DNA of 64,000 nucleotides from an uncultured Coriobacteriia bacterium (GTDB taxonomy: Bacteria > Actinomycetota > Coriobacteriia > Anaerosomatales > JAAXUF01), in assembly GCA_963803785.1 (NCBI GenBank), contig CAWDNM010000006.1, forward strand, positions 760,135 to 824,134. Reading direction: 5' to 3'. Position numbers and translations under genes: made by a program. The notes under the pieces are model-generated. The model did no database searches. It was not told where the DNA came from and worked only from the letters and a program-made list of their open reading frames with translations. Below are positions 47,552-63,803 of this stretch, piece by piece (the first letter of the stretch is position 1; every line of letters begins with the position of its first letter).

Positions 47552-48414
47552 TCAAGCTTGGCGTCGGGGGCCGATTCCGCCGCGCACTTTGAGGGGCGCC
47601 TTTTCCGTTGCCCTTGAGCTCGCGGCGGCTTTCGACTTGAGCGAAGGATGTTGACGCACTTCGCGGGCGCGTTTCGAGTAGCCGCGACCGAGGCGGGTCA
47701 TCTTGCGACGAACAGCCATGATGAAGAATGCAGCCAGCTGCGATAGCAACAAGGATGACGACGATCTGCGCCGTCGAGCCTGAGGAGGTCGAGTCGACGC
47801 ACCTGATGCCGGGGCTGCTCCCACTTGATATGAGAACGTCATGTCAAGCTGGTCACCCGGCTTAACGTCCTTCACCGACTTGGTGTAGAAGCTGTAGCCG
47901 GAGTCGCCCGGCTGCAGCGCAGCTCCAGGAGCCGCCTGAACAATCTGGGCGCTCTGTGGGATCCGCGCACTCAGCCGAACTTCCGGTACTGCTTGAGTCG
48001 CCGTCCACTTCACGGCGGGCGTGTAATTCTTGCCATCGAAGCCGGCAGCGTCGCTCGTCACGATTTCAATCTGCGCGATGCGCGACTTCGTTAACGTGAA
48101 CCGGTACACGTCCGAACCGTCCACCGTCGACTTGGTGTATGTGAGCTCGGGATCAGCCGATGGGATCGCCGCCAAGTATCTGACCGACCCACTGAAGCGA
48201 TGAGCCCGCCGGCACGGAGAGCTCTGCCTCGGCAGGCAACTTGGTTGACTCCGGAAGCTCGCCGGACACGAGCAACACGCCACCCGACTGCTCCGAGTGC
48301 AACGTGACATCGACCCGCTGCCCAGTCTTGGGGCTCGGCGATGGCGGATCCGGCCCAAAGAAGGACGGATACAAGCATGGCGAGGGGAAGTAGAAGACGA
48401 AGCGTACGACGCAT
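47552..48414 (-). CDS. hypothetical secreted/membrane-anchored protein (about two frame changes)
   Basis: Signal peptide MRRTLRLLLPLAMLVSVLLWAGSAIA after AGGAGAG. The ectodomain is VDVTLHSEQSGGVLLVSGELPES...YRFTLTKSRIAQIEIVTSDAAGFDGKNYTPAVKWTATQ..DMTFSYQVG. A C-terminal hydrophobic stretch and a basic tail follow. No family recognised. Confidence 0.55.
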
Positions 48415-49275
48415 GGGGACTCTCCTGACCTGGGGCTCAACGACGGCAAAGTACCGTCGGAGGTCAGATGCGGAGAGCGGAGACCTTTAGTAGAACGCGG
48501 CGTGGAAGCGAGTGGGGTGCCTGCCATGAACACGACCTCGCGAGAACCCCCCCATCAAGGAGCAGCATCAGGTCAAAGGCCGACCTGCACACGCACTTGA
48601 GCCTGCGGGCGAGTCTTGCGAGTGGGCGTGAACGCTCAGCTCCGGTACAGCATGAATGGGCGCAACCGAAAGCCATGCCGTCGGCACAGAGCGATAGGAT
48701 CACTGCACCGACCAAGACGCAGCGATATGATGAGGATGAGCTTGAGCGTATTCATGTTGAACCGATCTAATGCAAGCATCGTGCCTTGTGGGCTCTGAGG
48801 GGGGACTTTCCTGCCCATCTGCCCAAGTGAGCATCGACACACATCCCAGAACCACCGCCGGCACGGAGTAGTCATCGCCGGGCCAGAACGCTTACCTGAA
48901 CCCGAGGAGCGTAGGTGCTGGACGCCGCGCACGCAAACGTAGATATCGTGGAGAAGCCCAGATCGGGCGCAGCCAAGAATCGCCTGCCATGCCCGACCTT
49001 CCCTCGAAAGCGGCGTCAGGTGCTTGAGCTCAGGATTGAGAGTACCTGGGTCGGGGCCGTTTGGATCCTCGCAGGACGCGCTGTCTGAGGGACTCAGAGA
49101 CTCGATTGGCGCGGCCCATCTCATGTCACCTGGCCCCAAGCCGAGTGTGTCCTCTCGCTGGGCACCGAAGTAGGTGTTTCTACTATAGAGACACATGGCA
49201 TTCACGCCCCGAAGGCGTCCGGGCGTCAACCGACTCACAAACACAGCGTATTCACAAGAATCGCAGCAGCCTCAA

Positions 49276-49302
49276 GGCGTCCGCTCGATGCCTTTGCTGG
49301 GC
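49276..49302 (+). repeat. dispersed ~45-nt repeat, copy A (most diverged)
   Basis: GGCGTCCGCTCGATGCCTTTGCTGGGC. Compare copies B, C and D. Confidence 0.5.
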
Positions 49303-49319
49303 ACCGGCTGTCAGCCGTG

Positions 49320-49520
49320 CTACCGCGCCTGCGAACCGCGATTCGACTTGTCGCGGCTGAGCCGGTCAGCGGCCACAGCGAACCACTCGATGAGCGCTCC
49401 GACGAGTGCCCCAATCGCGATCCCTGGAAGTAAGCTGTGGCCAGGGCGCGCAATCGAAAGACCAATGAAGAGTCCGATCCCCGCCCCAGCGAATGCCAGG
49501 TAGCCGAAGCGCTTCGCCAT
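49320..49520 (-). CDS. small hypothetical membrane protein
   Basis: Track ORF 49320..49571. Two hydrophobic helices (FGYLAFAGAGIGLFIGLSIA, LLPGIAIGALVGALIEWFAVA). The start is taken at MAKRFGY (49520), 9 nt after GAAGGG. Earlier in-frame starts are possible. Confidence 0.5.
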   Translation of the reverse strand: MAKRFGYLAFAGAGIGLFIGLSIARPGHSLLPGIAIGALVGALIEWFAVAADRLSRDKSNRGSQAR

Positions 49521-49587
49521 TCCAGCCATCCCTTCGTGCGCCCAACGTCGTGCGCATGAGCGGACGAGCACGCGCTGTCTGGTCGAT

Positions 49588-49625
49588 TCTACCTGTTGGC
49601 GTTCTGCTCGATGCGCTTGTTCGAC
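49588..49625 (+). repeat. dispersed ~45-nt repeat, copy B
   Basis: TCTACCTGTTGGCGTTCTGCTCGATGCGCTTGTTCGAC, in the divergent intergenic region between 49520(-) and 49686(+). Confidence 0.6.
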
Positions 49626-49685
49626 AGCGCGCGCACTGACAAGTGGGTAGGTTCTTCCCTACGACGATAGAGAGGGGCAACCGCC

Positions 49686-50030
49686 ATGACAATGGCCAAT
49701 GATCTCTTGCAGGGCTGGCGCGACAACTTCACAGTGCACCGCGTCTTCGGTGATCCGGTCGAGAAGGAAGATGTGACTGTCATCCCCGTGGCGATGGTCG
49801 CGGGGGGCGGTGGAGGGGGCAACGCCCCGTCGGAAGGCGAAAGCGAAGCAGAGGGCTCGGGCAGCGGCTTCGGTGGGATGGCCCGGCCAGCCGGGGTGTA
49901 CGTCATACGCGCTGATAGCGTTGAGTGGCAACCAGCGATCGATGTTACGAGGCTGGGCATGGCTGGCATCGCGCTAGCCGCACTCATCACCGTGACAGTG
50001 GGCGTGGCGATACGGCGACGCCAGCGATAG
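49686..50030 (+). CDS. GerW/YtfJ-family (Spore_YtfJ-like) protein with C-terminal TM segment
   Basis: VHRVFGDPVEKEDVTVIPVAMVAGGGGGG...GSGFGGMARPAGVYVIRADSVEWQPAIDV matches the YtfJ/GerW pattern (FGEPIE..G.T.IPVA.V..GGGGG ... P.G.Y.I....V.W.PA.D) from memory. Confidence 0.7.
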   Translation: MTMANDLLQGWRDNFTVHRVFGDPVEKEDVTVIPVAMVAGGGGGGNAPSEGESEAEGSGSGFGGMARPAGVYVIRADSVEWQPAIDVTRLGMAGIALAALITVTVGVAIRRRQR

Positions 50031-50155
50031 TCGTGTTACGGCGAGAGCCGCTGGTCGCAGGCATGTGTTCATGGAATACGCGGTAGTCGCCTGCGGCCGG
50101 GAAGTCGGGACTGGGTCTGTCGAACGTGTTACGCATGAGCAGACGCGCATGCCCG

Positions 50156-50204
50156 CTCAGGTCAGTCTACGTTCTGGCGTTCTGCTCGATACCTTTGTTG
50201 GGCG
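50156..50204 (+). repeat. dispersed ~45-nt repeat, copy C
   Basis: CTCAGGTCAGTCTACGTTCTGGCGTTCTGCTCGATACCTTTGTTGGGCG, between convergent genes 49686..50030(+) and 50233..50634(-). Confidence 0.6.
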
Positions 50205-50232
50205 AATCTCGGTGTCCCGGGGGTGTCGGCCG

Positions 50233-50634
50233 CTACCCAGGCTCTGGGAGAAGACCATCAAGGATGCCCGCCACATGCTCGACGATCTCAGAGCAGACCT
50301 GCTTCTGTTCGGGTGACCCGCGCTCGAGCTTCCCGCCCAAGGCCCTGCAGCACGTAACCCTGTACGTCTTCTTGAACTCATCGACGAGGGACTTCGCCTT
50401 CTCTGCGCATACCATTGGGTCTTGGTCCGCGTTGGTCCGGCCATAGGTCGCACCGATAACGATCTGCGCTCCAGCAAGGGCTCCGCAGACACACCCGGAC
50501 ACCATGCCTTGCCCGAAACCTGTCGCCAGCCTGACGTACTCCTCTGGGACACGACCTTCTTCTGCCGCCGCCTTCAGGATCGATTCGGCGCAGACGTACC
50601 CCTCGAAGTAGAGTTCCTTCGCTCGCGCCTTCAA
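50233..50634 (-). CDS. C_GCAxxG_C_C-family protein
   Basis: 133-aa ORF (TTG start 9 nt after GAGGAGGA). The family signature is ...VCAESILKAAAEE...GMVSGCVCGALAGAQIVIG...TCCRAL. Confidence 0.75.
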   Translation of the reverse strand: MKARAKELYFEGYVCAESILKAAAEEGRVPEEYVRLATGFGQGMVSGCVCGALAGAQIVIGATYGRTNADQDPMVCAEKAKSLVDEFKKTYRVTCCRALGGKLERGSPEQKQVCSEIVEHVAGILDGLLPEPG

Positions 50635-50798
50635 CTCAGTCCTCCTCGACTGGACGTGCGGTCCATCGCCTTGGGGAGCACGATCACACTCGCGGGATTA
50701 GGCCCGGGATGGTCATCGCGCGAAACCGACCGCCTTGGGCCCGCCTGCCGTTGTCGATTCCGCCTAACGTGTCTTGCTTGACCTGCGGCGCAGGCACC

Positions 50799-50848
50799 CT
50801 CAGGTCAGACTAACTTCCTGGCCGTCAGGTTGAAGCCATTGTTGGGCG
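50799..50848 (+). repeat. dispersed ~45-nt repeat, copy D
   Basis: CTCAGGTCAGACTAACTTCCTGGCCGTCAGGTTGAAGCCATTGTTGGGCG. It shares the first 10 nt and the last 12 nt exactly with copy C, and is ~70% identical overall. Confidence 0.55.
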
Positions 50849-50907
50849 TGCGGATCTCACGTTGTGGGTCGGTGCGCCAGCGATTCGACGCTACACGGTG
50901 TCACACA

Positions 50908-51765
50908 TCAGAAGTCCGGGTCCGGGAATGTCGGCTCACGACCCTCGGTGAAGGCCTTGATACCTTCGACGCGGTCGGGATTGACGACCGAGCGCCAATG
51001 CTGGTCCATCATGATCGCGATGGCTTGCTCCACTGGCTCGCCCTGTCCGTTCTGAACCGCACGCTTGACCGACTGGACTGCAGTAGGCGAGTTCTGTGCA
51101 ATCTTGTCAGCGATGGCCAACGCGGCGTTCATCAGCTCAGTTCGGGGATGAACCTCGTTGACCATTCCGAGTCGGTAGGCTTCTTGCGCGGTTATCGGTT
51201 CGCCGGTCATCAACATCTGCATGGCCTTGCCCGGAGGAAGCACCCGAGGAAGGAACACGGGCGAGCCACCCCCGGCGGACAGACCGACCATCGCCTCGGG
51301 CTGACCGAAGACAGCGTCATCAGAAGCGATGATGAAGTCAGTACTGATGGCCATTTCGCAGCCGCCGCCGTAGGCCATTCCGTGGACTGCGGTGAAGATC
51401 GGCCTCCGCAGCTGACGCAGGTTGTAGAGAACGCGGTCGAAGACCTGGCGCTGGCGCAGCCACTCCTCCCTCGTCATCTGCTTGCGCTCGTAGAGGTCCC
51501 CGCCAACCGAAAATGCGCGGTCGCCTGCGGAAGTGAGAATGGCGACGCGCACAGAAGGTCGCGCCGCAATCGTCTCGAGTATCTCGATCAACTGCGCCGC
51601 CAGCGCCGTCGTTACCGCGTTGTCGGCATGGGGTCGGTTCAGCGTGATGATGGCGATGCGAGCGTCGGACACGTAGTCGACGAGTACGAGCTGGTCGGGC
51701 TCAGGTTCGTCCAGCGGCGGACGGTAGCCGAGGCGCTTCATGCGTGTGTCAGTGCTGCCAGACAT
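50908..51765 (-). CDS. enoyl-CoA hydratase/isomerase (crotonase) family protein
   Basis: Intact ORF. IAIITLNRPHADNAV, SAGDRAFSVGGDL, AVHGMAYGGGCEMAISTDFIIASDDAVFGQPE and EGIKAFTEGREPTF. Start placed at MSGSTDT (51765) after GGAGAGAG; the track ORF extends to 51828. Confidence 0.85.
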   Translation of the reverse strand: MSGSTDTRMKRLGYRPPLDEPEPDQLVLVDYVSDARIAIITLNRPHADNAVTTALAAQLIEILETIAARPSVRVAILTSAGDRAFSVGGDLYERKQMTREEWLRQRQVFDRVLYNLRQLRRPIFTAVHGMAYGGGCEMAISTDFIIASDDAVFGQPEAMVGLSAGGGSPVFLPRVLPPGKAMQMLMTGEPITAQEAYRLGMVNEVHPRTELMNAALAIADKIAQNSPTAVQSVKRAVQNGQGEPVEQAIAIMMDQHWRSVVNPDRVEGIKAFTEGREPTFPDPDF

Positions 51766-52158
51766 TCTCTCTCCAATCATCATCGCTCCCCAGGGAGCAA
51801 CTGGCTCTACTGCCGAATTTCGAGTCATAACGACATGCGCGTGAGAATGAAGGTGAACTCTCGCTAGGTGTGCCCGTCTCAGCCGGGTAGCCGAATCCCG
51901 CCTTACCGTTGTATGCGCTCACGTCTCCAAACGCGGCTGTCCATATGCTCGTCGTGTAGCACGGAGTTGTCCAGCAGGTGAGTGCGCCCCCGCGTCCTGC
52001 GGACGCGGCGAAGGTGTGCGTCAATGGGGTAACATCTTACCTGCTGGTAAGGGACCCGCCGCATCGCCGACGGGTAGCAAGTGACGGGGTCAAGAAGCCG
52101 GATGCCCCCTCCACATTAACCAGCGACCATCAGGAAGACCGAGTCGGGAGGATTCAAC

Positions 52159-53328
52159 ATGACTGAGGAAATCAGGAGTTCGGATCACGTAGCGTTGGAC
52201 TGGAACGACTTCTACTACACGAACTGTCCGCTGGTGTCCGCCAGCAACGTGGATCAGGAGTTGGGCTGGGTTCGCGAGGAGCTCAAGAAGATCGGTATCG
52301 AGTACAGCTTCCTTCGCTCGCGCCGCGAGAACAACTGGTACCCGCACTACATCCACAACATGGACAACCTCATGCGCGCGGGCGGGTGCTTCCCTGCGAT
52401 CGCCGTGCAGGCAGATGTTCGCCGGACGCGTCTTATCGGCCTCACGCACGTGCCGCAGGAGGGCGGCTGCATGCTCGTGCGGGCGAGGGACGACATCCAC
52501 CGGATGAAGGACCTCAAGGGCAAGAAGATCGGCCTGTCCAAGAGCCTGAACACCATCAAGAACGACTGGTGGCGTTGCCAGGAGGAGCAGGGCGATCGAG
52601 AACATGCTCATGCTCAACGACATGACCCGCGACGACGTCGAGATCGTCGAGTTCCCGTACCCGGACGACTGGTACGACAAGCCGGAGATGCTGGCTCCGA
52701 TGTACAACCCGTCTGAGCTGTGGCTCAAGCGCGACCACAAGCATGACCTCGCATTCCGTCCCCTTGAGACGTCGCTCGTCACCGGAAAGGTCGACGCCAT
52801 CTACACCCAAGACAGGGTCTTCCAGCACTCGCAAGAGGCCACGGGCGGAATCAAGCGATCGAGAACCTGGGCAACTACCCCGACTGGACGCTCGGCGGCG
52901 CGAACATTCCTGCGACGTTCACCGTCAGCGACGTCGTATGCGAGGAGCATCCTGAAATCGTCGTCGCGATCATGAAGGGTCTCATCAAGGTCGGGCGCTG
53001 GGCCAACGAGCACAAGCACGCCGCTGCAGCCATCCTCGACAAGCAGACCTTCTACCTGGACGTTGAAGACACCTACCGAGGTATCAAGGACGTCGACATG
53101 GTCCCGAACCTGTCTCCGCAGAACCTTGCTCTGACCGAGATGAACAAGGACTTCTTGCTGAGTCACGGCTACATCAAGAACGACTTTGACGTACAGGCGT
53201 GGGCCGCTCCGGAGTTCTTCGAGAAGGCCGCACAGGAGCTGGTCGAGGACGAGTGGAAGAAGCGCAGCATCAGCAAGCTTCCGCAGGCGGTCACTCTCGA
53301 GGAAGCGATGGAGTTGCGGCTGGGGTAG
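52159..53328 (+). CDS. DszB-like (2'-hydroxybiphenyl-2-sulfinate desulfinase family / NMT1-SsuA-fold) protein, two frame changes
   Basis: Track ORFs 52159..52716, 52604..52975 and 52972..53328. The segments FYYTNCPLVSASN, RTRLIGLTHVPQEGGCMLVRARDDIHRMKDLKGKKIGLSKS, DDVEIVEFPY, GKVDAIYTQ and QAWAAPEFF align with my memory of Rhodococcus DszB (TYSNCPVPNA with the catalytic Cys, RTRLLGITP..FFVRDDSPI..LAGRRIGVSAS, DDVELVPI, DQWAAPEFL). Confidence 0.6.
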
Positions 53329-53432
53329 CGAGTTGTCTGGCGCTCGCCCGGCTACGACGTGCCGAGTCACGAGCACGAGAGAAGGAGATGAGAAGATGCC
53401 GACAGTAACGTACGCTTCACGGAAGGCACGAG

Positions 53433-53962
53433 GTGCCCGACGCGAAGCTGACCAGCTTGGGCCTGTACGTGACTGCCGCGGAAGCCTACGAGATGTGGAA
53501 AGCCGATCCGGAGAAGGTCAAGGTTCTTGACGTGCGCATGGTCGAGGAGTACGTCTTCCTCGGCCATGCGGCGAGAGGCGGTCAATATTCCGGTGGCCTT
53601 TCCCAAGTACGAATGGCATGACGACAATCGGAAGTACGGCTTCGAGCTGAATCCCGACTTCGTCGACCACGTCAAGGCAGTGCTTCCAGCCCGGCGACAC
53701 TATCGTGGCGATGTGCCGGTCGGGCGGACGCAGCGCGTTCGCCATCAACATGCTGGCCAAGGCAGGTTTCGTGACCGCCTACAACATCATCGATGGCTTC
53801 GAAGGCGACACGGTCGACGATCCGGAGAGCGTCTATCACGGCAAGCGCATGAAGAACGGATGGAAGAACTCAGCGCCCTGGACCTACGACCTCGATCCGG
53901 CGCTGGCATGGATTCCCACGGGCGAAGAGCTGGAGAAGCTCCGCAGCACCTTGGACGTCTAG
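53433..53962 (+). CDS. rhodanese-domain protein (about two frame changes)
   Basis: KVKVLDVRMVEEYVFLGHA..EAVNIPVAF, active-site loop IVAMCRSGGRSAFA, and a C-terminal extension GFEGDTVDDPESVYHGKRMKNGWKNSAPWTYDLD. Track ORFs 53433..53621, 53527..53973 and 53705..53962. Confidence 0.75.
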
Positions 53963-54072
53963 CCGCGAACTGACTTCAGCCAAAGAACCGAGTAGGTCCG
54001 GTTGGGCCTACTCGGTTCTCTGCGAGTCCGATTCAGTTGCCGGTAAGCGCCGAAGTCCGAGGAGGACAAACT

Positions 54073-54940
54073 GTGACCACCAATGAATTGCTCACCGTCG
54101 TAGCCCAGGTGACCGGTCTGCTCGGGATCGTCGGCAGTATGGCTGGGAATGGGTCTGGGCCTGACGGTCTCCCAGATCGTGGAGCCACTGAAGAACGTTC
54201 GTCTGGTCGTATTGGCGCTCCTCGCGAACTTCGTGCTGGTACCAGCTCTCGCCTATGGGATCACGCTGGTCATCCCGCTCGACGATGCACTCAAGATCGG
54301 ATTGATGGTCGTGGCGTTGTCAGCGGGCGCGCCCTTCCTCGTGCTCGAGGCGCGTGCCGCCAAGGCCAATCTGGCGCTCGCTGTCGGGCTGATGACGCTC
54401 CTGATGGTCGTGACCATCTTCTATCTGCCGCTCGTATTGCCGCTGCTGCTGACCGGCATCGAAGTGGATGCGAGGGCGATCGCCACGTCGTTGATCGTCC
54501 TGATGCTGCTCCCGCTGGTACTCGGTCTGCTTGTCAGGTCCGGCGCGCCCGAGACCGCGCAACGCTGGCAGCCGACGATGAACAAGATCGGCAGTCTGGG
54601 CATCATGATCATGCTGGTGGTCGGGCTGGGATTGAACGCTGCCAACGTGATCAGCCTGATCGGAACCGGCGGATTCCTCGCGCTGCTACTCTTCATCGCT
54701 GGCAGTCTGTTGATCGGCTTTGCCATTGGCGGCCGTGATCGAGGCGTGCGCAATGTGACGGGGCTGGGTACGGCACAGCGCAATGTATCGGCCGCCATCG
54801 TGGTTACGCTGGCGAACTTCTCTGGCACGAGTGCGGTTCCGTTCGTGCTGGTGGCATCCGTTCTCATGCCGCTGATCTTGCTTACGATGGCGAAGCGGCT
54901 GGGAGCACGCAGCGAGACGTCGACCGACGAGGCCGGCTGA
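54073..54940 (+). CDS. bile acid:sodium symporter (BASS/SBF-like) family transporter (one frame change near 54140)
   Basis: GTG at 54073, 7 nt after GGAGGA. About 9-10 TM segments. LGMGLGLTVSQIVEPLKNVRLVVLALLANFVLVPALAY, VVALSAGAPFL and GLGTAQRNVSAAIVV are typical of the SBF-like family. Track ORF 54149..54940. Confidence 0.7.
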
Positions 54941-55007
54941 GGTTCGGCGGATCACCGCCTGGCACTGGTAGCCGATTGGGAGCGCGGACCCGCGCCTCAG
55001 CTCAAAC

Positions 55008-55035
55008 CGAATGCAAGAGGAGCCGCCCCATCCGG
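55008..55035 (+). terminator. strong hairpin terminator candidate
   Basis: AGGAGCCGCCCC-ATCC-GGGGCGGCTCCT is a perfect 12-bp stem, ~70 nt after the transporter stop. Confidence 0.65.
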
Positions 55036-55295
55036 GGCGGCTCCTGTATCAACGGGGACAGACAGGTCGATCGGATGCGCCAGTAGATATGCGGGCTGCG
55101 TAGGCCGCTCGAGGTTTGTTGAAGGTGAATCCGTGTTGTTTACACGAGGGCGGGCCCTGAGACAGACCTTCGCTGCGAATGGATGGTGTTGCTTGGCACA
55201 AGACACCTATTTCGTGCCGGGACGCCTGCAATCCGACAGAACGGGGGACCCTCCGGAGCGGACGAGACAACCGCCTGCCGCAAGGAGACCCGAAG

Positions 55296-55871
55296 ATGGC
55301 ATCGAGAAGGAACCGCCTGCCCCGCACGAAGACTCCCGAGGAATGGTCCGCGTTCTTCGCGGCGATCAACGTCCGTTACGCCACCCAGATGAGAAACCAC
55401 GCCTGCCTGTACTTGATGTACATGACCGGGATTCGCGTGGGCGAGTGCCTCAGCCTCTACGTTGAGGACTTGGACTTCGACCGGATGCGTCTACATGTCA
55501 GATCGGGCAAGACGGGTGAGAGGAACGTACCGCTTCCCGACGACGACAAACTCAGAATCAGCGTCGAACGGTGGCTCACGGTCCGTGAGGGCTGGAATCC
55601 GCCCTCTCCCCTCCTGTTCCTCACCAAGCCGGGCAAGGCACTTTCGCCCAACGCGGTCAGGGAAAGCATGCGGCTCTACGCCGCGAGGGCCGGAATCGGT
55701 CATGCGTCGTGCCACATGCTCCGACACTCGGCGGCGACAGAACTGCTAGCGCAGGGCGCAAGTCCAATCGGCGTCCAGAGAATCCTCGGCCATGCGAGGC
55801 TAAGCACCACCCTGAACATCTATGCATCGGCCGCCGATTCACACGCCGCGGAGGCGATGGCCAGGAGATGA
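55296..55871 (+). CDS. short tyrosine recombinase (catalytic domain only, ~191 aa)
   Basis: ATG at 55296, 8 nt after AAGGAG. Catalytic residues are recognisable: R in LMYMTGIRVGECLSL, HxxR in SCHMLRHSAATELL, and H/Y in ILGHARLSTTLNIYAS. No N-terminal core-binding domain. Confidence 0.8.
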   Translation: MASRRNRLPRTKTPEEWSAFFAAINVRYATQMRNHACLYLMYMTGIRVGECLSLYVEDLDFDRMRLHVRSGKTGERNVPLPDDDKLRISVERWLTVREGWNPPSPLLFLTKPGKALSPNAVRESMRLYAARAGIGHASCHMLRHSAATELLAQGASPIGVQRILGHARLSTTLNIYASAADSHAAEAMARR

Positions 55872-56049
55872 ACCTGATTCCCACTTGGGCATCACAACCA
55901 TCAAGTTGAGGCCGAGGGTTTCGCTCACGCGCGCGGTGGTTCACAAGGTCATGAGGGCGTAGATTGAGCTTGAGACGACGTCTCGCGGCATCAATGTACT
56001 GTCCCGACCGCACGTGTCTTGCTCGCCCGAATCAGATTGGGGGGTGCGA

Positions 56050-57558
56050 ATGCCCGACCATCGCGTCGACAGAGCCGACTTGATGAATCGCATGATGGCC
56101 GCTCTCGACGACCCCGACCCCGCCGTGCGCCGGTACTCCGCCCAAGCACTCGGACGCGTTGCTGACCCCTTAGCGGTGCCGCCCCTCGTCACAGCCCTTC
56201 GTGACCTCGATAGTGACGTCCGCTGGAAGGCAGCCGAAGCACTCGGCCGAATCGGTGATCGCGCAGCGGCAGTCCCTTTAACGCTCGCCCTTCGGGATTC
56301 CGAGAATCGAGTCCGCTGGAAGGCCGCTCAAGCACTCGGTTCGGTTGGTGACGCCGCTACGGTGCCGCACCTCGTTGCCGCTCTTGATGACTCCTTCTTC
56401 GCCGCGCGCAACGCCGCCGCGGAGTCGCTCGGCGCACTCAGGGACCCCACCGCCGTGCCACACCTCATCGCCATCCTGAATGACCTAGTGGGGGGCCGGA
56501 AAGCTGCCGAGGCGCTAGGCGCCATTGGGGACCCCGCCGCCGTGCCGCACCTGATCGCCCAGCTGAGCAACCCAATCGCCAACACCAAGGCGGTTGCGCA
56601 GGCCCTTACGGCGATCGGAGACCCATCGTCCGTGCCTCGTGTCATCGTTGCCCTATATGACTCCGAAAGTTGGACACGGCGCAACGCTGCGATGGCCCTT
56701 GGCATCATCGGCGATCCGGCAGCTGTGCCTCATCTCACCACCGCCTTGGATGACGATGACGGCGGAGTACGGGTCAAGGCCGCGGAGGCCCTTGGCGCAT
56801 TTGGAGACCCCGCAGCCGTACCCCGCCTCATAGCGGACCTTGCTGATCCCGACAGCTACGAGCGTGCCTACGCTGCTGTTGCCCTCGGGGAAATCGGTGA
56901 TCGCTCAGCGGTGCCGGACCTTATCCTCGCCCTCGATGACATTGAAGAGGGTGTGCGCTGGGATGCAGCAAAGGCTCTCGGTGCGGTGGGTGATTCTGCG
57001 GCCGTGCCGGCCCTGATCACAGCGCTGTTCGACCCAGACTCGGGGGTACGCAGCAACGCTGCCGCGGCGCTTGGCCGAATCGGTGATCCCGCCGCGGTGC
57101 CCCACCTCATCGCAACATTCCTCTGCCCTGACCCATACGTGTGCCGTAGCGCCGCCCAGGCACTCGGCGAGATCGGCGATCCCGCAGCCGTGCTGCCGCT
57201 CATTTTGCTTGTGGACGACAGTGACATCGAGGTGCGCCACAACGCGGTCGAGGCACTGCGCGTAATCAACGACCCTATGGTCGTTCCGCACTTTACTTCG
57301 GCCTTGGCTGATCCCGACCCGAGTGCGCGACGGGTGGCCGCCAAGGTGCTCAGGGTAATCGGTGATCCTGCCTCTGTGCCCAGCCTTGTCGAGGCCCTGG
57401 ATGACAGCGACGAACGCGTGCGTTGGATTGCCACGGAAGCGCTCGGCGAGATTGGCGACCCAGTGGCGGTGCCCCGACTGACCATGGCATTCGTCGATGC
57501 TGACACTCGAACCGCCATGGTTGCGGCCCGAGCGCTTCTGCTGATGACTCGCCAGTAG
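56050..57558 (+). CDS. HEAT-repeat (PBS-lyase HEAT-like) protein, 15 full ~31-aa repeats plus one partial
   Basis: Intact ORF (the track ORF begins at the GTG at 56014; the ATG is at 56050). The repeated unit is D.D..VR..AA.ALG.IGDP.AVP.LI.AL, e.g. DLDSDVRWKAAEALGRIGDRAAAVPLTLALR. Confidence 0.85.
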   Translation: MPDHRVDRADLMNRMMAALDDPDPAVRRYSAQALGRVADPLAVPPLVTALRDLDSDVRWKAAEALGRIGDRAAAVPLTLALRDSENRVRWKAAQALGSVGDAATVPHLVAALDDSFFAARNAAAESLGALRDPTAVPHLIAILNDLVGGRKAAEALGAIGDPAAVPHLIAQLSNPIANTKAVAQALTAIGDPSSVPRVIVALYDSESWTRRNAAMALGIIGDPAAVPHLTTALDDDDGGVRVKAAEALGAFGDPAAVPRLIADLADPDSYERAYAAVALGEIGDRSAVPDLILALDDIEEGVRWDAAKALGAVGDSAAVPALITALFDPDSGVRSNAAAALGRIGDPAAVPHLIATFLCPDPYVCRSAAQALGEIGDPAAVLPLILLVDDSDIEVRHNAVEALRVINDPMVVPHFTSALADPDPSARRVAAKVLRVIGDPASVPSLVEALDDSDERVRWIATEALGEIGDPVAVPRLTMAFVDADTRTAMVAARALLLMTRQ

Positions 57559-57662
57559 GCCGCGAAGAGCAAATGGCGTAGACGGCCCGTGCCCTCGTGG
57601 CCGTTGCCTGACCACGCTGTCGACGATTCAACTGGGGTCCCTAGACCTAGGCCTCGAGAGTC

Positions 57663-60600
57663 CTACTCCTCTTCGAAAGCGGAATCCCTGAAGCGCAACA
57701 CGCCCGCGTTCTCCAACACCGTGCGCTGCACCGCTTCGGGTACTCCACCCGGCACCTCGACCTGGATGTCGATCTCGACAACAACCCTCGCGCCCGGCAG
57801 CACCGCCAGATGCGCCAAGATGTGCTCCCCTATCTTCGCGGCATCGCCGCCAGGGGCAGTTGCGTTGATTTGTACGCTCCCGTGGAATCGACGCGGCAGG
57901 ACAGGTCCGGTGGCCCCCTCTGTCGAGCCGCCCACGGGCGTGCCTTCGATGGTGGGGGTGTCGCCCCCTCCCCACAACGTGCTCGGCTCGGGCGTACCTC
58001 CGGGAATCGGCAGCGGCACCTGAACGCCATCGCCCTTCTGCGCCAGTACCGATGTCTTGATGACGAAGCCACTCGCCATCACGCTCGCGGCCTCTCCAGC
58101 ATGAAGCCCACGATAGAGTGCGCCGGGCTCGTCGAAGGCCTCGGCATAGCCGAAGGTCTCGCTCTGCCAGTTGAGTGATGCGATACCGTCCTGTACTGCA
58201 CCGAGGAGAACACCCATATCTCGCATACGCGGGAGATAGAGGTATTGGGCAAACAACTCCCACAAGGGTCGAACCCCGATGCTTTCGTCCTTCCACAAGG
58301 GGATACGGTCCAGCCACATCCGGAGCACTGTGCCAGCCATCTTCGTAACGATCTGCTCCTCGTTGACGAGCTTGCGTGAGATGCGAACCGCCAGCTGCTC
58401 GTCACCAGCGACCTTCATCGCTCGCCATTCGATGTCACCTGCAGGGTTCGGCTGATCGGGCACGAGGACCCACTGCCACGCTTCACTCACTCGGTGACGA
58501 GCTGCCTCGCCCGTGTCCCGCAGCTTGGTCTCAACCTGCTGCATCTCCGCAGGTCCAAGATTCTGAGCTGTGGCGTCTCTCTGGATTGACTCCCAAGCGA
58601 GCATCAACCGCACTGCGGAAACGAGCGACTCCAGAACGGTGCGATCGGCTGCGAGAAAGATCAACATGTTGCGGAATCTTCGAGGTCCCGCGCCGCGGTC
58701 CTCGAGAATCTCTGCGACTCGTTTCCGCGCTTCTGAGTTGTCGGTCTTTGCCGAATGCGCGTATTTCGGTCCGAGCACCACGAGACGCGTCTCGGGTTCA
58801 TCCGCAACTTCAGACGCCGATTCCGGCGCCACGTGCACGCCACAAAACTCCCCTCGCTGCACGCACGCGACTCGAAGCAGCTTCACAATCTCGGCATCAA
58901 CATCCGCCGGCTTGAACGCGTCAGCGCGATCCTGCGCAAGCCTCGTCAGAGTCGGCTTCACCGAAAACGAGTACCGCGTCCCATCAGTCGTCAGATGAGT
59001 GGCCTTGTCAGATAGGCGACGAAGCGCGTCGCCGAATACCGCAGAGGGCTCGCCAGGCTGCACGCAACCAAGCTTGATCCTCTTGTCCTCAATGCCCGGG
59101 TGCTTGGTCCCCACCGTGGGCGCCGAGCCCAGATAGACCGTGCGCGCCACTCGCCTCGTCGCCGAGTAACGACCCAGGTTGGGGTTCTCACGGTCAATCG
59201 CGACGGGCAGCGAATTCGCGCCGTCAACATCCTTCTCGATGATTGGCTTCCAGTTGTCCTCGAGATAGCGCGTGAGCTCTGAGAGGACCGATTCGTGATC
59301 GATTGGAACGCTGCCTGGGGTGATAAGCAGACTGGAGTCCTCACCAACCCACAGCGCATGTACTACTGCGGCCATCAATCGGAGCACGCCTCGTGTCCGC
59401 TGGAATCGCTCGAGCGTCGACCAGTCTGAGTAGAGGCGCTCGAATAGTTCAGGATGGATGGGGTAAGCCATCTCCATACGGCGACGGTAGTCGCCCTCAC
59501 GCGTCTCCCGCGGGAACTCCTCACGTTGGCCCGAGTACAGGTCAGCGAACCCTTGAATGACGGCATCGCGTGCCAAACACGCGTCAGGACTGATGTCCTC
59601 AAAGAGCCGCCGGCGCACGATCTCGAAGCTCTCTTCCGCAGTCGCCGGTCGCCATGGAGATTGCAGCCTACCAACCACGTTCTTGAGTCGCTTCAGCGCC
59701 TCGAATCCGCCCTCACCACCAATCTCAGCGGCACTTGCGGACGTCTCCGGGTGGTCAACATCTCGCACAGCGTCCGACGCCGGTATCGACACCACGAGGA
59801 GCGCACCAGGCACAGCGTTCACGGACTCAGTGAGCGCCTGTGCGAAAGTGAAGTGGGTATCGAACGTTCCTGCCGGCAGGTCTGAGTTCGAGTACAGCTG
59901 TCGCGCGTACGCGACCCATTCGTCGATGAGAATCACACACGGAGCGTAGCTCTTGAGAACATCTCGGAGTGCCACGCCGGGGCTCGTGCTGGTTGCATCA
60001 GCCTCGGCCACCAGGGCAAACCCCTCGGCCCCGCCAAGCTGCCAAGCGATTTCTCCCCAAAGCGTGCGAACGACGGTGCCGTCTGGCTTCGTGACGGGCT
60101 GCCCGGGCGCGACCGCCGTGCCCACGATGACGGCACGCTTCACAACATCCGGTCTGGATACCCCTGCTGCCTCGAGGAGTTCAGTCACACCAGAGAGCTG
60201 ATCGACTGGAGCATCCGAGAAGAGGTGGTAGAGCGCCAGAAGCGAGTGGGTCTTTCCCCCGCCGAAGTTCGTTTGAAGTTCGACGATTGGATCGCCCCCT
60301 TCGCCGCTCAGCCGCTCCGCGGCCCTCGTGAGCAGTGAACGCAATCCCTCCGTCATATAGGTGCGACGGAAGAACTCCGCCGGATCTCTGTACTCGTCCA
60401 CTCCTTCACCGCGATGAACTTGGGCGAGGTCGGCTGCGAATTCTGCGGTCTGATATCGGCCCGTCGCGACGTCATGGTGCGGCTTGATAACGTGGCGCCA
60501 AGGCGTGAGCCCAGAAGACGGCGTGCCCTCAAGTGCGGCCTGCACGGCTCGCTTGGACTCTCGCTTGGTCTGCTCGTCAAAACGAATGCGCAGCAGCTCT

Positions 60601-60991
60601 TGCTTCATCCTGTCTGCGTCCACGGCTTCGGAGGCAGATACCGCTGCGAGCAGACGCTGGACACTGTCCAGTGCCCGGTACGCATCATCGGTAGAGAACT
60701 GCTCATTGTGCGCCCACCGGTTTCGGGTATCCCGCAGCTCTCTTACGAGCGTTCGCTCCGAGGAACCAAGGACCTTGCTGAAAACCTGGTTCCACGCGTC
60801 CCCCATAGCCTTCAGTAGTGCGAGGAATCACGGAACTCCGCTTCCGACGAACCCGGCTTTCCAGGAGTACCGATCTGGGTATCCCACCCCTCGCCCAGCG
60901 ACGCGTGCATTTCGCGCAGGAAGAACGGTCGCAGGCCTATGGCCAGCAACTCCAAACCCTTGCCGACCCGATCACGATTAGTCGTTGCCAT
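57663..60991 (-). CDS. DUF499-family (COG1483-like) ATPase with N-terminal Swt1-like HEPN domain (one frame change near 60815-60830)
   Basis: ATG at 60991 (MATTNRDRVGKGLELLAIGLRPFFLREM...) joins track ORF 57663..60806. The HEPN Rx4H motif is in VRELRDTRNRWAHNEQFSTDDAYRALD. The P-loop-like segment is ELQTNFGGGKTHSLLALYHL. A long conserved body follows (VILIDEWVAYARQLY, AYPIHPELFERLYSDWSTLERFQRTRGVLRLMA). It starts 26 nt downstream of the methyltransferase. Confidence 0.8.
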
Positions 60992-61017
60992 CTACGTTCG
61001 TCCCCTCATTGGCTGAG

Positions 61018-63803
61018 TCAGATCTCGAGCTTGCCCTGCGCGGTCCCGCTGATGGATGAGCCCGACGAGGCCAGCTTCACAATCTCCGGCCAGGCTACGA
61101 CTAGCGCGTTGAATGGCATGGCGTCCCGGCTCCAGCCCTTCTTCTCGCAGACGGCGAAGAGGCGGTACGCAAGGTCACGAGCGATTTCGCCATACGCAGC
61201 ACCGACGCGAGCGAGCAAGTCAGCCGCTCCGCTCTCGCCACGCATCTTCGAGCGAACGCACGAGATACTGTGCGACCTCCCAGACGGTGAGCATCTTGTC
61301 AGTCGCTGGGTCCCAGTCATCCGCAAGCTCATCGCGTTGGAGGAGGCGAACCTTCCCTGCACCCGACTCAACGAAGCCGTCATGTGCGAGTGTGTCGACG
61401 GAAATGGCCTTGGCTTTGGCCAGGATGTCCGCGACTCCGTACGCCCCCTCAGAGAACCCCTCTTGTTCGAACCATGCGAGCGCCCAGCGAGTCGCCGGAT
61501 CATACTCACTGTCTTGCTCCGAGAGCACCTCGTCCAGCACTTGATTTACTAGCGCGAGTGCCGCACGCACCGGCATCGCAGAATCCGTCCGCTTCGACGA
61601 CCTTCGAGTACGCCGAGAAGACGCCCATTCCCGGTCCAATCGCTGCCTGCGCGAGGTCGACTGGCGCGATGTTGCCATGCTGCAGAACGCGGAGTGCATC
61701 CGGTAGCTCACGCCGGAGCGCGCTGACGAATTCGCTACGCGTCGCCATCGGTGCCGACGACTCGCGTGGACGGCATACGAGAACGATAGATGAGGCCAGG
61801 GCATTCGTGCCCGACGCTGTCGGACGGTTCGAGAGCTCACTTCGCATAGGCCACGTTCCGAGCACGACGAAGCCCGCGGCCAAGAGACCTTCTAGCATCG
61901 TTTCCCAGCCAGTCGATGCCGTCTCGGTGTCATCAGTCTCAGCTTGCTTGAATGCGTAGTAGACAGTCAGTGGGAACCGCACGTCGTGCGCGTCCCGCAT
62001 CCGCTCGAACGCATGACCGAGGCCCGTTTCAAAGAACTCCTGAGCTTTGTGCCTGTCTCCACCAAAGCGATACGGCGTGGCCACAAGTTCCTGCGCCTTG
62101 GGCACGAGCAGGGTACTCATCAGCTGCGGATAAACGCTGCCGAGCGATTGCCGGAGCCAAACGTAGAAGAAGTCCGAGAGGTCTGCATAGCCGATGTTGT
62201 CGTAGTAGGGCGGATCGGTGGAGATCATCGGCCTCACAACTTGTTCGATTGCGGCCGCCGCGTCCATCTGATGTGCCTCACCAGTTGCGCGCGGACAGGA
62301 GGCCTCGAGCACGCGGATGAGGCTACCTAGGGACACTTCATAGTCTCCTGCCGCACCACCGAAGATGTTGTTTTCCGCGTAGTCCCAAATCATTGGGATT
62401 GCCTGGCGGCCGAAGAGATTTCGCACCTGCGTCTTGCTACTCTCCCAGCGGCACAGAGAGTTGCTGATGTCCGCAAGTCGACTGACCCCGAAACCTAGGT
62501 AGGTGGCGACCGCGTCCGCGTACGCCCGCGCGCCGGAACCGCCATCCTCCATGGAGACGTCATCGTTGGGCATCCCGCTAGCGAGCGCATCCAGAAGGAC
62601 CCGCTCGCGTGCCTCTCCCACGAGATCGCAGAATGTGCCCAACGCAACGAGCTGCCGAGGCGTGAACAAGTCGGAGAACTTCGTCATGCCGTAGTTTGGT
62701 GTCTTGAAATCGCGTGGGTTGTGCGGCAGCGGTACATCCGGCTTCCAAGAGGGTACCGCCGACTCTGAAATACGGACATGCTCGTCATTTGGCTCGACGT
62801 AGAGCCGGCCTCGCGCACTTTCAGCGACAATAGCTATTAGCCGCTGGCCCATTCGACCGGCCCGTCCCTCTGCGCGAACGTGCTCGAACGGCACCGAGGA
62901 ACCACAGACTACGCAGCGTCCCCCACGGCGGTTTACAGTGCCGTCTTGGGGTACCCCCTCCCCAGTCCGCACCTTAAAGCGCACCCGCTTGGTCTCCCTA
63001 TCCACGACCGGCTCAACCCACGCGCCTTGTCCCTTCTTCTTGGACAACCACCATTTGTTCGTGAGCGGCATCTCAGCGTGACACGCCGGGTTGGGGCATT
63101 CCACTGTCCGCACCCAGAGCCACGCGATTACGGTAGCCTCGCCGCCGCCATATATCGCCGGCAGTTCAACCCTCGGATAGAGCATCCCGATGCGTTCCTG
63201 TGCTTGCTCGCGCATCCACGCGCCATAGCGGCGCACGTCCTCGGCAAGCCCTCGAGCATGAAGCCACACTCCCGCCCCCAGAGTCGCGGCGTCTGCATCA
63301 GGGTGAACGGGCGCTCGACCTGCAAAACGGGGCGGTATTTCGATGAGTCCCTTTGTGATGAGCACCGCGACGGGGTTGAGGTCACTGCCATGCGCCTCAA
63401 GTCCCAGCCTCTGCGCCTCAAGCGGGATGGATCCTCCGCCGCAGAATGGGTCGAGCACAGGCGGGGCGTCGCCGTTCGTCGAACGGACTATCTCCGCGCG
63501 TGCGGCGGCCAACACAGCTTCGTTACCGGTGTTCTCCCACTTCACGAGTTCCTCAATGACGCGGAACAAACGCTGGCGCTCAATCTCCTGGAGCTCACTC
63601 GTAGGGTATTGGTCGGGATGCGCTGATGGGTCGTCCACGAGCGATGAAAAGAGCACCGCGCGGCACGTCGCAAGCGGCTTGCGGGACCACCACAGGTGGA
63701 GCGTCGAGGGATGGCCGTGCCGGATGGACTTCTCTTTCGCCGACGCAACGTTAATCGCTTCAAGCGGCAGCGCTACCTCGATCAGCTTCTTCTTGTAGGT
63801 CAC
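61018..63803 (-). CDS. DUF1156-type (COG1743-like) DNA methyltransferase with Zn-ribbon (two frame changes in the 3' quarter)
   Basis: Track ORF 61506..63803 plus pieces in 61220..61840 and 61018..61509. The DUF1156 N-terminus is KKLIEVALPLEAINVASAKEKSIRHGHPSTLHLWWSRKPLA. The SAM motif is VLDPFCGGGSIPLEA, the Cys clusters are CPNPACH...CVVCGS, and the catalytic motif is MISTDPPYYDNIGYADLSDFFYVW. Confidence 0.85.

Follow-up and report, generated by a model that had tools for sequence, protein, structure and literature searches.

Organization of the locus

The locus studied here lies in a 64,000-nucleotide stretch of DNA from an uncultured Coriobacteriia bacterium (GenBank assembly GCA_963803785.1, contig CAWDNM010000006.1, positions 760,135 to 824,134 of the forward strand), hereafter called the window, in which position 1 is the first letter. 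Three plus-strand genes, coding for a protein related to 2'-hydroxybiphenyl-2-sulfinate desulfinase (DszB, also TdsB or BdsB; EC 3.13.1.3; structures 2DE2 and 2DE3), a rhodanese and a BASS-family transporter, follow one another, and a crotonase gene diverges from them, as listed below with lengths in amino acids (aa), nucleotides (nt) or base pairs (bp).

50908-51828, minus strand: crotonase (enoyl-CoA hydratase type), intact, divergent, likely start near 51783
51829-52158, no strand: intergenic region from which the crotonase and DszB-like genes diverge
52159-53328, plus strand: gene for a DszB-like, predicted cytoplasmic enzyme, in three frame pieces which together code for about 389 aa
53396-53962, plus strand: single-domain rhodanese, about 187 aa, CRSGGRS active-site loop, C-terminal extension, three frame breaks
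54037-54940, plus strand: BASS/SBF membrane transporter, about 300 aa, one frame break
55018-55045, plus strand: GC-rich hairpin with a 12-bp stem, 78 nt past the BASS stop codon

Kinship with DszB and the conserved active site

The initial annotation had proposed that the product of the gene at 52159-53328 aligns with DszB along its whole length, and the intact orthologs of the window protein bear this out. The motifs cited in that proposal are all present in the translation, namely FYYTNCPLVSASN (with Cys23), RTRLIGLTHVP..VRARDDI..LKGKKIGLSKS, DDVEIVEFPY and QAWAAPEFF, and the first frame piece contains Thr21, Cys23, His63 and Arg73-x-Gly75-Gly76. Orthologs are 84-87% identical to the window protein, the closest being P0121 and P0124, which are 85-86% identical to it over its first frame piece. 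P0121 matched DszB (2de2) over its full length at an E value of 8.6e-13, well beyond what chance would give, between residues 17-356 of the former and 21-359 of the latter. In this alignment S25-N-C27-P, H60 and R70-x-G72-G73 of DszB face T21-N-C23-P, H63 and R73-x-G75-G76, the context of the catalytic cysteine being TNCP in the window protein and SNCP in DszB. Excerpts of PMC6100217 describe the roles of C27, H60, S25, R70 and G73 of DszB and the conserved RXGG motif. Among 23 family members, which are 56-85% identical, T21, C23 (23/23), H63, R73 and G75 were found to be invariant and G76 to be at least 90% conserved; the Cys, His and RGG positions are also retained by nearly all of the 31 other, more distant full-length relatives listed.

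A profile of the family, searched against the PDB, found DszB at an E value of 6.6e-13, and DszB was the sole family found at E ≤ 0.01. We also compared an AlphaFold model of the DszB-like protein (predicted local distance difference test score 81.5, predicted template-modeling score 0.82) with solved structures using Foldseek, in which the top match was DszB (E 2.7e-18, template-modeling (TM) scores 0.69/0.76). The best SsuA protein was 3uif (E 1e-13, TM 0.61/0.71, 17% identity), and other binding proteins and Thi5 trailed at 10-15% identity, the solved SsuA proteins as a group lying at 10-17%. Confidence in the model is lowest at residues 51-70 and 171-200, roughly the places of the DszB loops 55-62 and 187-204, which fold on substrate binding according to excerpts of PMC6100217. 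By both sequence and fold the protein falls on the DszB side of the SsuA/NMT1 proteins.

Protein searches with two queries returned 2347 and 2918 relatives of about 387-391 aa, annotated in the databases as ABC substrate-binding proteins, and a profile search of 1.84 billion representatives returned 1078 relatives at E ≤ 1e-3, in which clustering at 50% reduced the DszB-like clade of the window essentially to a single full-length representative. Conservation within the clade is also much stronger, mean column identity being 74% across members from several phyla, and motifs specific to it, such as NNWYPHY, KNDWWR and RDHKHD, are invariant, which sets it apart from DszB. The fold, the full-length alignment, the Cys, the His, the RXGG motif and a Ser or Thr two residues before the Cys are common to both. 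Judged from its sequence, the window protein is a true relative of DszB which retains the catalytic positions, and it is a member of a distinct, very conserved clade within the DszB-like enzyme superfamily.

Absence of the features of a transporter binding protein

The type-II binding-protein fold of the DszB-like protein, its weak profile matches to the SsuA/NMT1-THI5 family (PF09084, TIGR01728) and the source annotation, which names it an ABC substrate-binding protein, could also be explained if it were a non-catalytic cytoplasmic ligand-binding protein, serving as a sensor or as a chaperone for the adjacent transporter. There is no curated NCBIfam model for the clade, and the top one, SsuA_fam (TIGR01728), gave 57.9 bits with P0124, far under its cut-off of 163.5; the frame pieces of the window gave 26.6 and 19.3 bits with the same model and no Pfam match at E ≤ 0.01. 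The N-terminus, MTEEIRSSDHVALDW..., was found to be without a hydrophobic run, signal peptide or lipobox. Furthermore, we examined 79 loci with related genes, which were among the best 80 of 560 confirmed matches and many of which come from metagenome-assembled genomes (MAGs) with similar names and are not independent of each other, and noticed genes for ABC ATPases or permeases in none of them (0/79 at E ≤ 1e-3), the positive controls being found. Because it has no signal peptide and none of the 79 loci has ABC transporter genes, the DszB-like protein is predicted to be cytoplasmic and is not an ordinary binding protein, as had been argued initially from the missing signal peptide and lipobox. 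Unlike SsuA and NMT1-THI5 proteins, it also carries the catalytic set of DszB, and since this set, Cys/His/Arg-x-Gly-Gly, belongs to a known enzyme and does not vary in the clade, a purely ligand-binding role appears very improbable to us. The cytoplasmic location and a make-up in which no cofactor-binding domain is needed are further likenesses to DszB.

Conserved neighborhood of the DszB-like genes

The ortholog of the rhodanese matched PF00581 at E 1.2e-13, the window's own rhodanese pieces giving no Pfam match at E ≤ 0.01; the window gene codes for the CRSGGR loop, whose cysteine is invariant (20/20). The closest solved structure is Ab-RLD (8w14, E 1.4e-13), which the abstract of PMC10925157 describes as a thiosulfate sulfurtransferase carrying persulfide and thiosulfate. 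The C-terminal extension of the rhodanese, which had been called unusual, does exist and is typical of its subfamily, being partly common to 8w14, so it does not single out this locus. The transporter matched PF01758 at E 6.7e-18 (65.5 bits, cut-off 24.3) and gave 43.7 bits with TIGR00841, which is under the cut-off of 326.3. Elsewhere in the window, at 837-1097 on the minus strand, lies a rhodanese-domain stretch which is 30% identical to the rhodanese described here and 42% identical to the rhodanese domain of a CoA-disulfide-reductase (CoADR)-rhodanese fusion.

The surroundings of the 79 loci were examined up to 7 kb on each side, with family names taken from Pfam scans of cluster representatives. 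A tblastn search anywhere in the locus found the 187-aa rhodanese in 47/79, BASS in 15/79 and the crotonase in 15/79 loci, and the C_GCAxxG_C_C gene of the window in none of them (0/79). In a stricter count, which used more than one query for each family and accepted only matches that covered at least 50% and lay within 5 kb, a rhodanese-domain gene of any kind was present in 70 of the 79 loci (187-aa rhodanese 45/79, small rhodanese 23/79, CoADR-rhodanese fusion 22/79), and one or more of four transporter-type families in 39 (BASS 24/79, SulP-STAS 14/79, DUF202 11/79, MarC 6/79). Among enzymes and regulators the same count gave the crotonase in 15/79, a MalT/LuxR regulator in 15/79, an ABM monooxygenase in 10/79, a ferredoxin-nitroreductase fusion in 7/79 and a glycyl-radical enzyme in 6/79, and sulfatases also recur in subsets of the loci. 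Linkage of the DszB-like gene to the rhodanese (45-47/79) and to BASS (15-24/79) is thus conserved. Four architectures recur: MalT, then the DszB-like gene, rhodanese, BASS and optionally SulP, with a ferredoxin (Fer4)-nitroreductase fusion and a crotonase as optional genes after the DszB-like one; AraC beside DszB-like, rhodanese, MarC and DUF202; a sigma54 activator with ABM, DszB-like, OmpA, rhodanese and, further on, CoADR-rhodanese and BASS; and TetR with DszB-like and small rhodanese.

The crotonase matched PF00378 (ECH_1) at E 6.7e-58 (196 bits) and reached no NCBIfam equivalog cut-off; both catalytic Glu motifs, GGGCEMA and GQPE, are present and aligned with 5z7r. Crotonases encoded next to DszB-like genes share 72-87% identity with it. 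In a reciprocal test we took the best 80 of 467 confirmed metagenome loci with a close relative of the crotonase (73-93% identical) and found the ferredoxin-nitroreductase fusion in 51/80, a DszB-like gene in 42/80 and the rhodanese in 32/80; where more than 1300 nt of upstream sequence was available, the DszB-like gene was present in 30/38. The crotonase thus recurs as a specific part of the module, mostly together with the ferredoxin-nitroreductase fusion; the initial annotation, which noted it as a divergent gene, undervalued it as a partner. No close ferredoxin-nitroreductase fusion or CoADR-rhodanese was found in the window's own genome.

A second DszB-like gene, 68% identical, lies on contig C5 of the same genome (272339-273455; loci L002 and L085) in an organization of the TetR kind: a TetR gene diverges from it, and downstream come a 187-aa rhodanese, which is intact, a CLC anion channel and a radical SAM gene. 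On a plasmid of the cultured strain Rhizobium leguminosarum ATCC 14479 (NZ_CP030763, locus L084), which is tractable for genetics, the DszB-like gene stands between two genes of the 2-hydroxyacyl-CoA-dehydratase family and two activase genes, and BASS, two rhodaneses and SulP come next. Two apparent fusions of DszB-like protein and rhodanese, P0195 (579 aa) and P0015 (493 aa), have linkers which look out of frame and were treated as run-through gene calls.

The canonical dsz partners had been reported as absent, and we found no DszA- or DszC-type monooxygenase gene either beside the window genes or among 24 Pfam-scanned neighbor clusters, the rest of the genome not having been searched. More distant homologs, 25-29% identical and of the same superfamily, do occur in dsz-like operons on rhizobial and Sphingobium replicons (loci L166 and L167), flanked by a gene for an LLM flavin oxidoreductase and one of the acyl-CoA-dehydrogenase family in a dszA-B-C-like order, for example on pRapFH23a of Rhizobium acidisoli. 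Those operons adjoin ABC sulfonate transporters, unlike the 79 loci of the window clade which we examined. Every sequence-level hallmark of the DszB family is present in the predicted protein, and the operon context of DszB, the 4S pathway, is absent: in place of the monooxygenases DszA and DszC the partners are rhodanese, anion transporters, CoADR-rhodanese and crotonase.

The rhodanese, CoADR-rhodanese fusion and anion-exporter genes which meet in these loci are also found together in cst-type operons for sulfide and persulfide stress, as in Enterococcus faecalis, from which the window differs in that its genome has no close CoADR-rhodanese. To our knowledge no DszB-like gene has been described in cst-type operons, and our literature searches returned none either.

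Proposed function of the module

The overall explanation that we consider best, and which in our judgment has an even chance of being right, is that the window holds one copy of a widespread, uncharacterized, mobile sulfur module whose DszB-family core releases sulfite from a sulfinate-type substrate, its frame breaks being assembly errors. The release of sulfite from a sulfinate-type compound is our best guess by analogy with DszB. A group of the -SO2(-) type would be bound by His63 and Arg73-x-Gly-Gly as in DszB, and Cys23 would break the bond to that group, freeing SO2 or sulfite from a small sulfinate-type substrate which would not derive from dibenzothiophene. The adjacent rhodanese, with its active-type CRSGGR loop, could then handle reactive sulfur, for example by joining sulfite and sulfane sulfur to thiosulfate, which would detoxify the sulfite, by making the sulfinate from a thiosulfonate, or by supplying or removing sulfane sulfur. 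BASS may move an anionic substrate or product across the membrane, and the crotonase may serve an optional, CoA-linked branch of the pathway. The gene-level observation of a DszB-like gene was confirmed, and the desulfinase interpretation first given to it is supported in part.

Several points weigh against this explanation. Identity to DszB is only 23-25% in the Foldseek alignment, and the first and second frame pieces of the window find no DszB match in the PDB when used alone, the third piece alone matching it at E 2.6e-4; because the window pieces alone are weak queries, the assignment depends on the intact orthologs. No enzyme that forms sulfinates is consistently linked in the 79 loci. 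The commonest partners (rhodanese; CoADR-rhodanese, 22/79; SulP, 14/79) handle inorganic or sulfane sulfur and not carbon skeletons, and these sulfur-transfer, persulfide-reducing and anion-transport partners would be equally compatible with a substrate that is inorganic or of the thiosulfonate type.

The last point leads to a mechanism in which an S-S bond and not a C-S bond is cleaved. In the conserved sulfite-binding site Cys23 would attack the bound substrate, which could be thiosulfate, a polythionate, a thiosulfonate or an S-sulfonate; sulfite would leave, and the resulting persulfide would pass to the rhodanese and on to the CoADR-rhodanese reductase where one is present, the transporters carrying inorganic anions. 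The minimal recurrent unit consists of a regulator, the DszB-like gene, a rhodanese and an anion transporter, with no carbon-handling enzyme, which would suit such a route, as would the rhodanese domain within 5 kb in 70/79 loci, the CoADR-rhodanese and SulP counts given above, and the activity on thiosulfate which the abstract of PMC10925157 reports for the related solved rhodanese. However, DszB, the sole characterized relative, cleaves a C-S bond with its Cys acting as proton donor and not as nucleophile, according to excerpts of PMC6100217, and the crotonase, ferredoxin-nitroreductase fusion, glycyl-radical enzymes and sulfatases found in subsets of the loci point to organic substrates. 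We regard S-S cleavage, the main alternative, as possible but doubtful.

To return to the release of sulfite from a sulfinate-type compound, three recurrent partners of CoA-related families (the crotonase, CoADR-rhodanese and dehydratase-type enzymes) suggest that the substrate of the fuller modules could be a CoA-linked compound. In its fuller form the module includes the crotonase, the ferredoxin-nitroreductase fusion, CoADR-rhodanese and, on the Rhizobium plasmid, radical enzymes of the 2-hydroxyacyl-CoA-dehydratase type. It is conceivable, as a tentative extension which we would rather doubt than expect, that the DszB-like enzyme and its rhodanese form the heart of an undescribed, oxygen-independent, horizontally spreading pathway for a common but unrecognized sulfur metabolite, and that this pathway would be CoA-linked when the module is fuller; a sulfino- or thiosulfonyl-acyl-CoA would be desulfinated and its sulfur relayed as persulfide or thiosulfate.

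A literature search covering main texts found no paper on the clade, and a protein-atlas look-up returned only the family's own clusters. Incidental matches to the word desulfinase in the literature concerned cysteine sulfinate desulfinase. DszB catalyzes the slow, rate-limiting step of fuel biodesulfurization and is the sole member of the family to be characterized. The clade, by comparison, comprises thousands of near-identical relatives, with at least nine phylum labels among 71 proteins; databases uniformly give it the wrong name of a transporter binding protein, and its partners are sulfur-transfer genes and not oxygenases. Were its substrate identified, the sulfur cycle of soils and sediments would gain a reaction, the annotation of a large group of proteins would be put right, and a desulfinase with other properties might become available.

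Nature of the frame breaks

All three plus-strand genes need frame corrections, as had been stated at the outset, and we located six breaks, all on the plus strand.

Break 1: 52594, plus strand, DszB-like gene, an extra G within a CGATCG motif (52593-52598)
Break 2: about 52852-52856, plus strand, DszB-like gene, one base missing at a CGATCG motif (52856-52861)
Breaks 3-5: about 53405-53412, 53570-53578 and 53675-53691, plus strand, rhodanese gene
Break 6: about 54141-54159, plus strand, BASS gene

The six are single-base shifts, with no in-frame stop codons or deletions, and each frame piece remains 81-87% identical to the intact P0124. For comparison we used short-read contigs of relatives, not of the window's strain, which are 85-99% alike and come from four sequencing runs sharing at most 9% of sampled words, so that these runs served for comparison of indels only. 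Nine contigs from three of the four runs are without the extra base at 52594, one contig has an additional base following 52852, and one lacks a base at 54141; the second rhodanese break is spanned by relatives' contigs with one gap each. Since at least three of the six breaks are absent from the relatives' contigs, we judge that the breaks are probably single-base assembly errors and that the genes are probably intact in the organism.

Two observations count on the other side: the contigs compared belong to relatives and placed three of the six breaks, none of them in the rhodanese gene, and six breaks within 2.8 kb, with none in the neighboring crotonase, HEAT-repeat and DUF499 genes, are unevenly distributed for random error. 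Such packing would be in keeping with the three plus-strand genes being genuine pseudogenes, a decaying copy of the module of which the pair on contig C5 would be the working one, and the presence of that second copy, together with the location of the locus in a variable region which is absent at the syntenic place of a same-genus genome, speaks for this too. The damage, however, is restricted to single-base shifts in pieces which still keep 81-87% identity to orthologs, the difference from the relatives' contigs is a single base at each of three break sites, the one break of the C5 paralog is of homopolymer type (an extra G in a run of G), and the gene for an integron integrase at another place in the genome is also split into three frame pieces, which points to indel errors throughout the assembly. 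Decay of these genes is, for these reasons, unlikely in our estimate. The assembly as a whole is 66.6% complete in only ten contigs. The motif CGATCG, at which breaks 1 and 2 lie, has 61 copies in the window, where base composition predicts about 22, and we considered whether methylation-motif errors occur at it; frame-switch signatures were seen at 6 of the 61 sites against 4.1 ± 2.0 at 61 random sites in a crude open-frame scan, a difference which is not significant.

Intergenic region and hairpin

The divergent intergenic region had been given as 390 bp, and it is instead 330 nt long when the crotonase is taken to begin at its first ATG and about 375 nt when it is taken to begin as its 290-aa orthologs do. 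No sigma-70-like promoter was found in 50000-55400, no inverted repeat in the divergent intergenic region (51829-52158) and no Rfam match (E ≤ 0.1) in 48000-56200. A strong terminator had been called downstream of BASS at 55008-55035; a hairpin is indeed there, ten bases further on at 55018-55045 (-37.4 kcal/mol, z -3.5, none of 200 shuffles folding as well), has no U-tract and was not called by a terminator scan, and could possibly be a terminator without a U-tract.

Distribution, proposed mobility and attC-like repeats

The DszB-like gene was found in 3 of 30 related genomes and was absent from the same-genus genome, which is 99% complete. Synteny with the latter stops at about 48957, and the stretch of 49-62 kb is absent at its syntenic place; besides the module and the cassette repeats, this non-syntenic stretch (about 48957-62000) contains genes for a tyrosine recombinase with a short N-terminus (55179-55871), a HEAT-repeat protein of 514 aa and a DUF499/HEPN protein of 1047 aa. 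The interval 36000-64000 is free of tRNA genes, and no island border of the tRNA type was therefore found. A tree of 71 proteins with nine phylum labels required 15 label changes against a minimum of 8, which is a hint of transfer subject to the caveats of bins and paralogs. The patchy distribution of the module is observed; its horizontal mobility belongs to the overall explanation given above, to which we give an even chance.

Repeats of about 100 nt resembling attC sites lie beside the module:

49531-49632, plus strand: attC-like repeat
50110-50210, plus strand: attC-like repeat, spacing 579 nt from the first
50753-50854, plus strand: attC-like repeat, spacing 643 nt from the second

Each has an RYYYAAC box, a 16-bp hairpin and a GTTRRRY box, with compensatory changes at ten pairs among 28 copies, and they bracket single small genes, a YtfJ-like open reading frame and the C_GCAxxG_C_C gene. 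The stop codon of the crotonase is 54 nt from the last repeat, which is context and not part of the module; the covariance model found no fourth strong copy in the window, so the module is not bracketed by attC-like sites. The same model detected 41 copies across the genome; one array on contig C6 (56.7-90.9 kb), which adjoins the integron-integrase gene at C6:92849-93792, the one in three frame pieces, accounts for about 34, and the same-genus genome has attC-like arrays of at least 14 and at least 12 copies. The three repeats of the window therefore look like a small group of cassettes remote from the main chromosomal integron.

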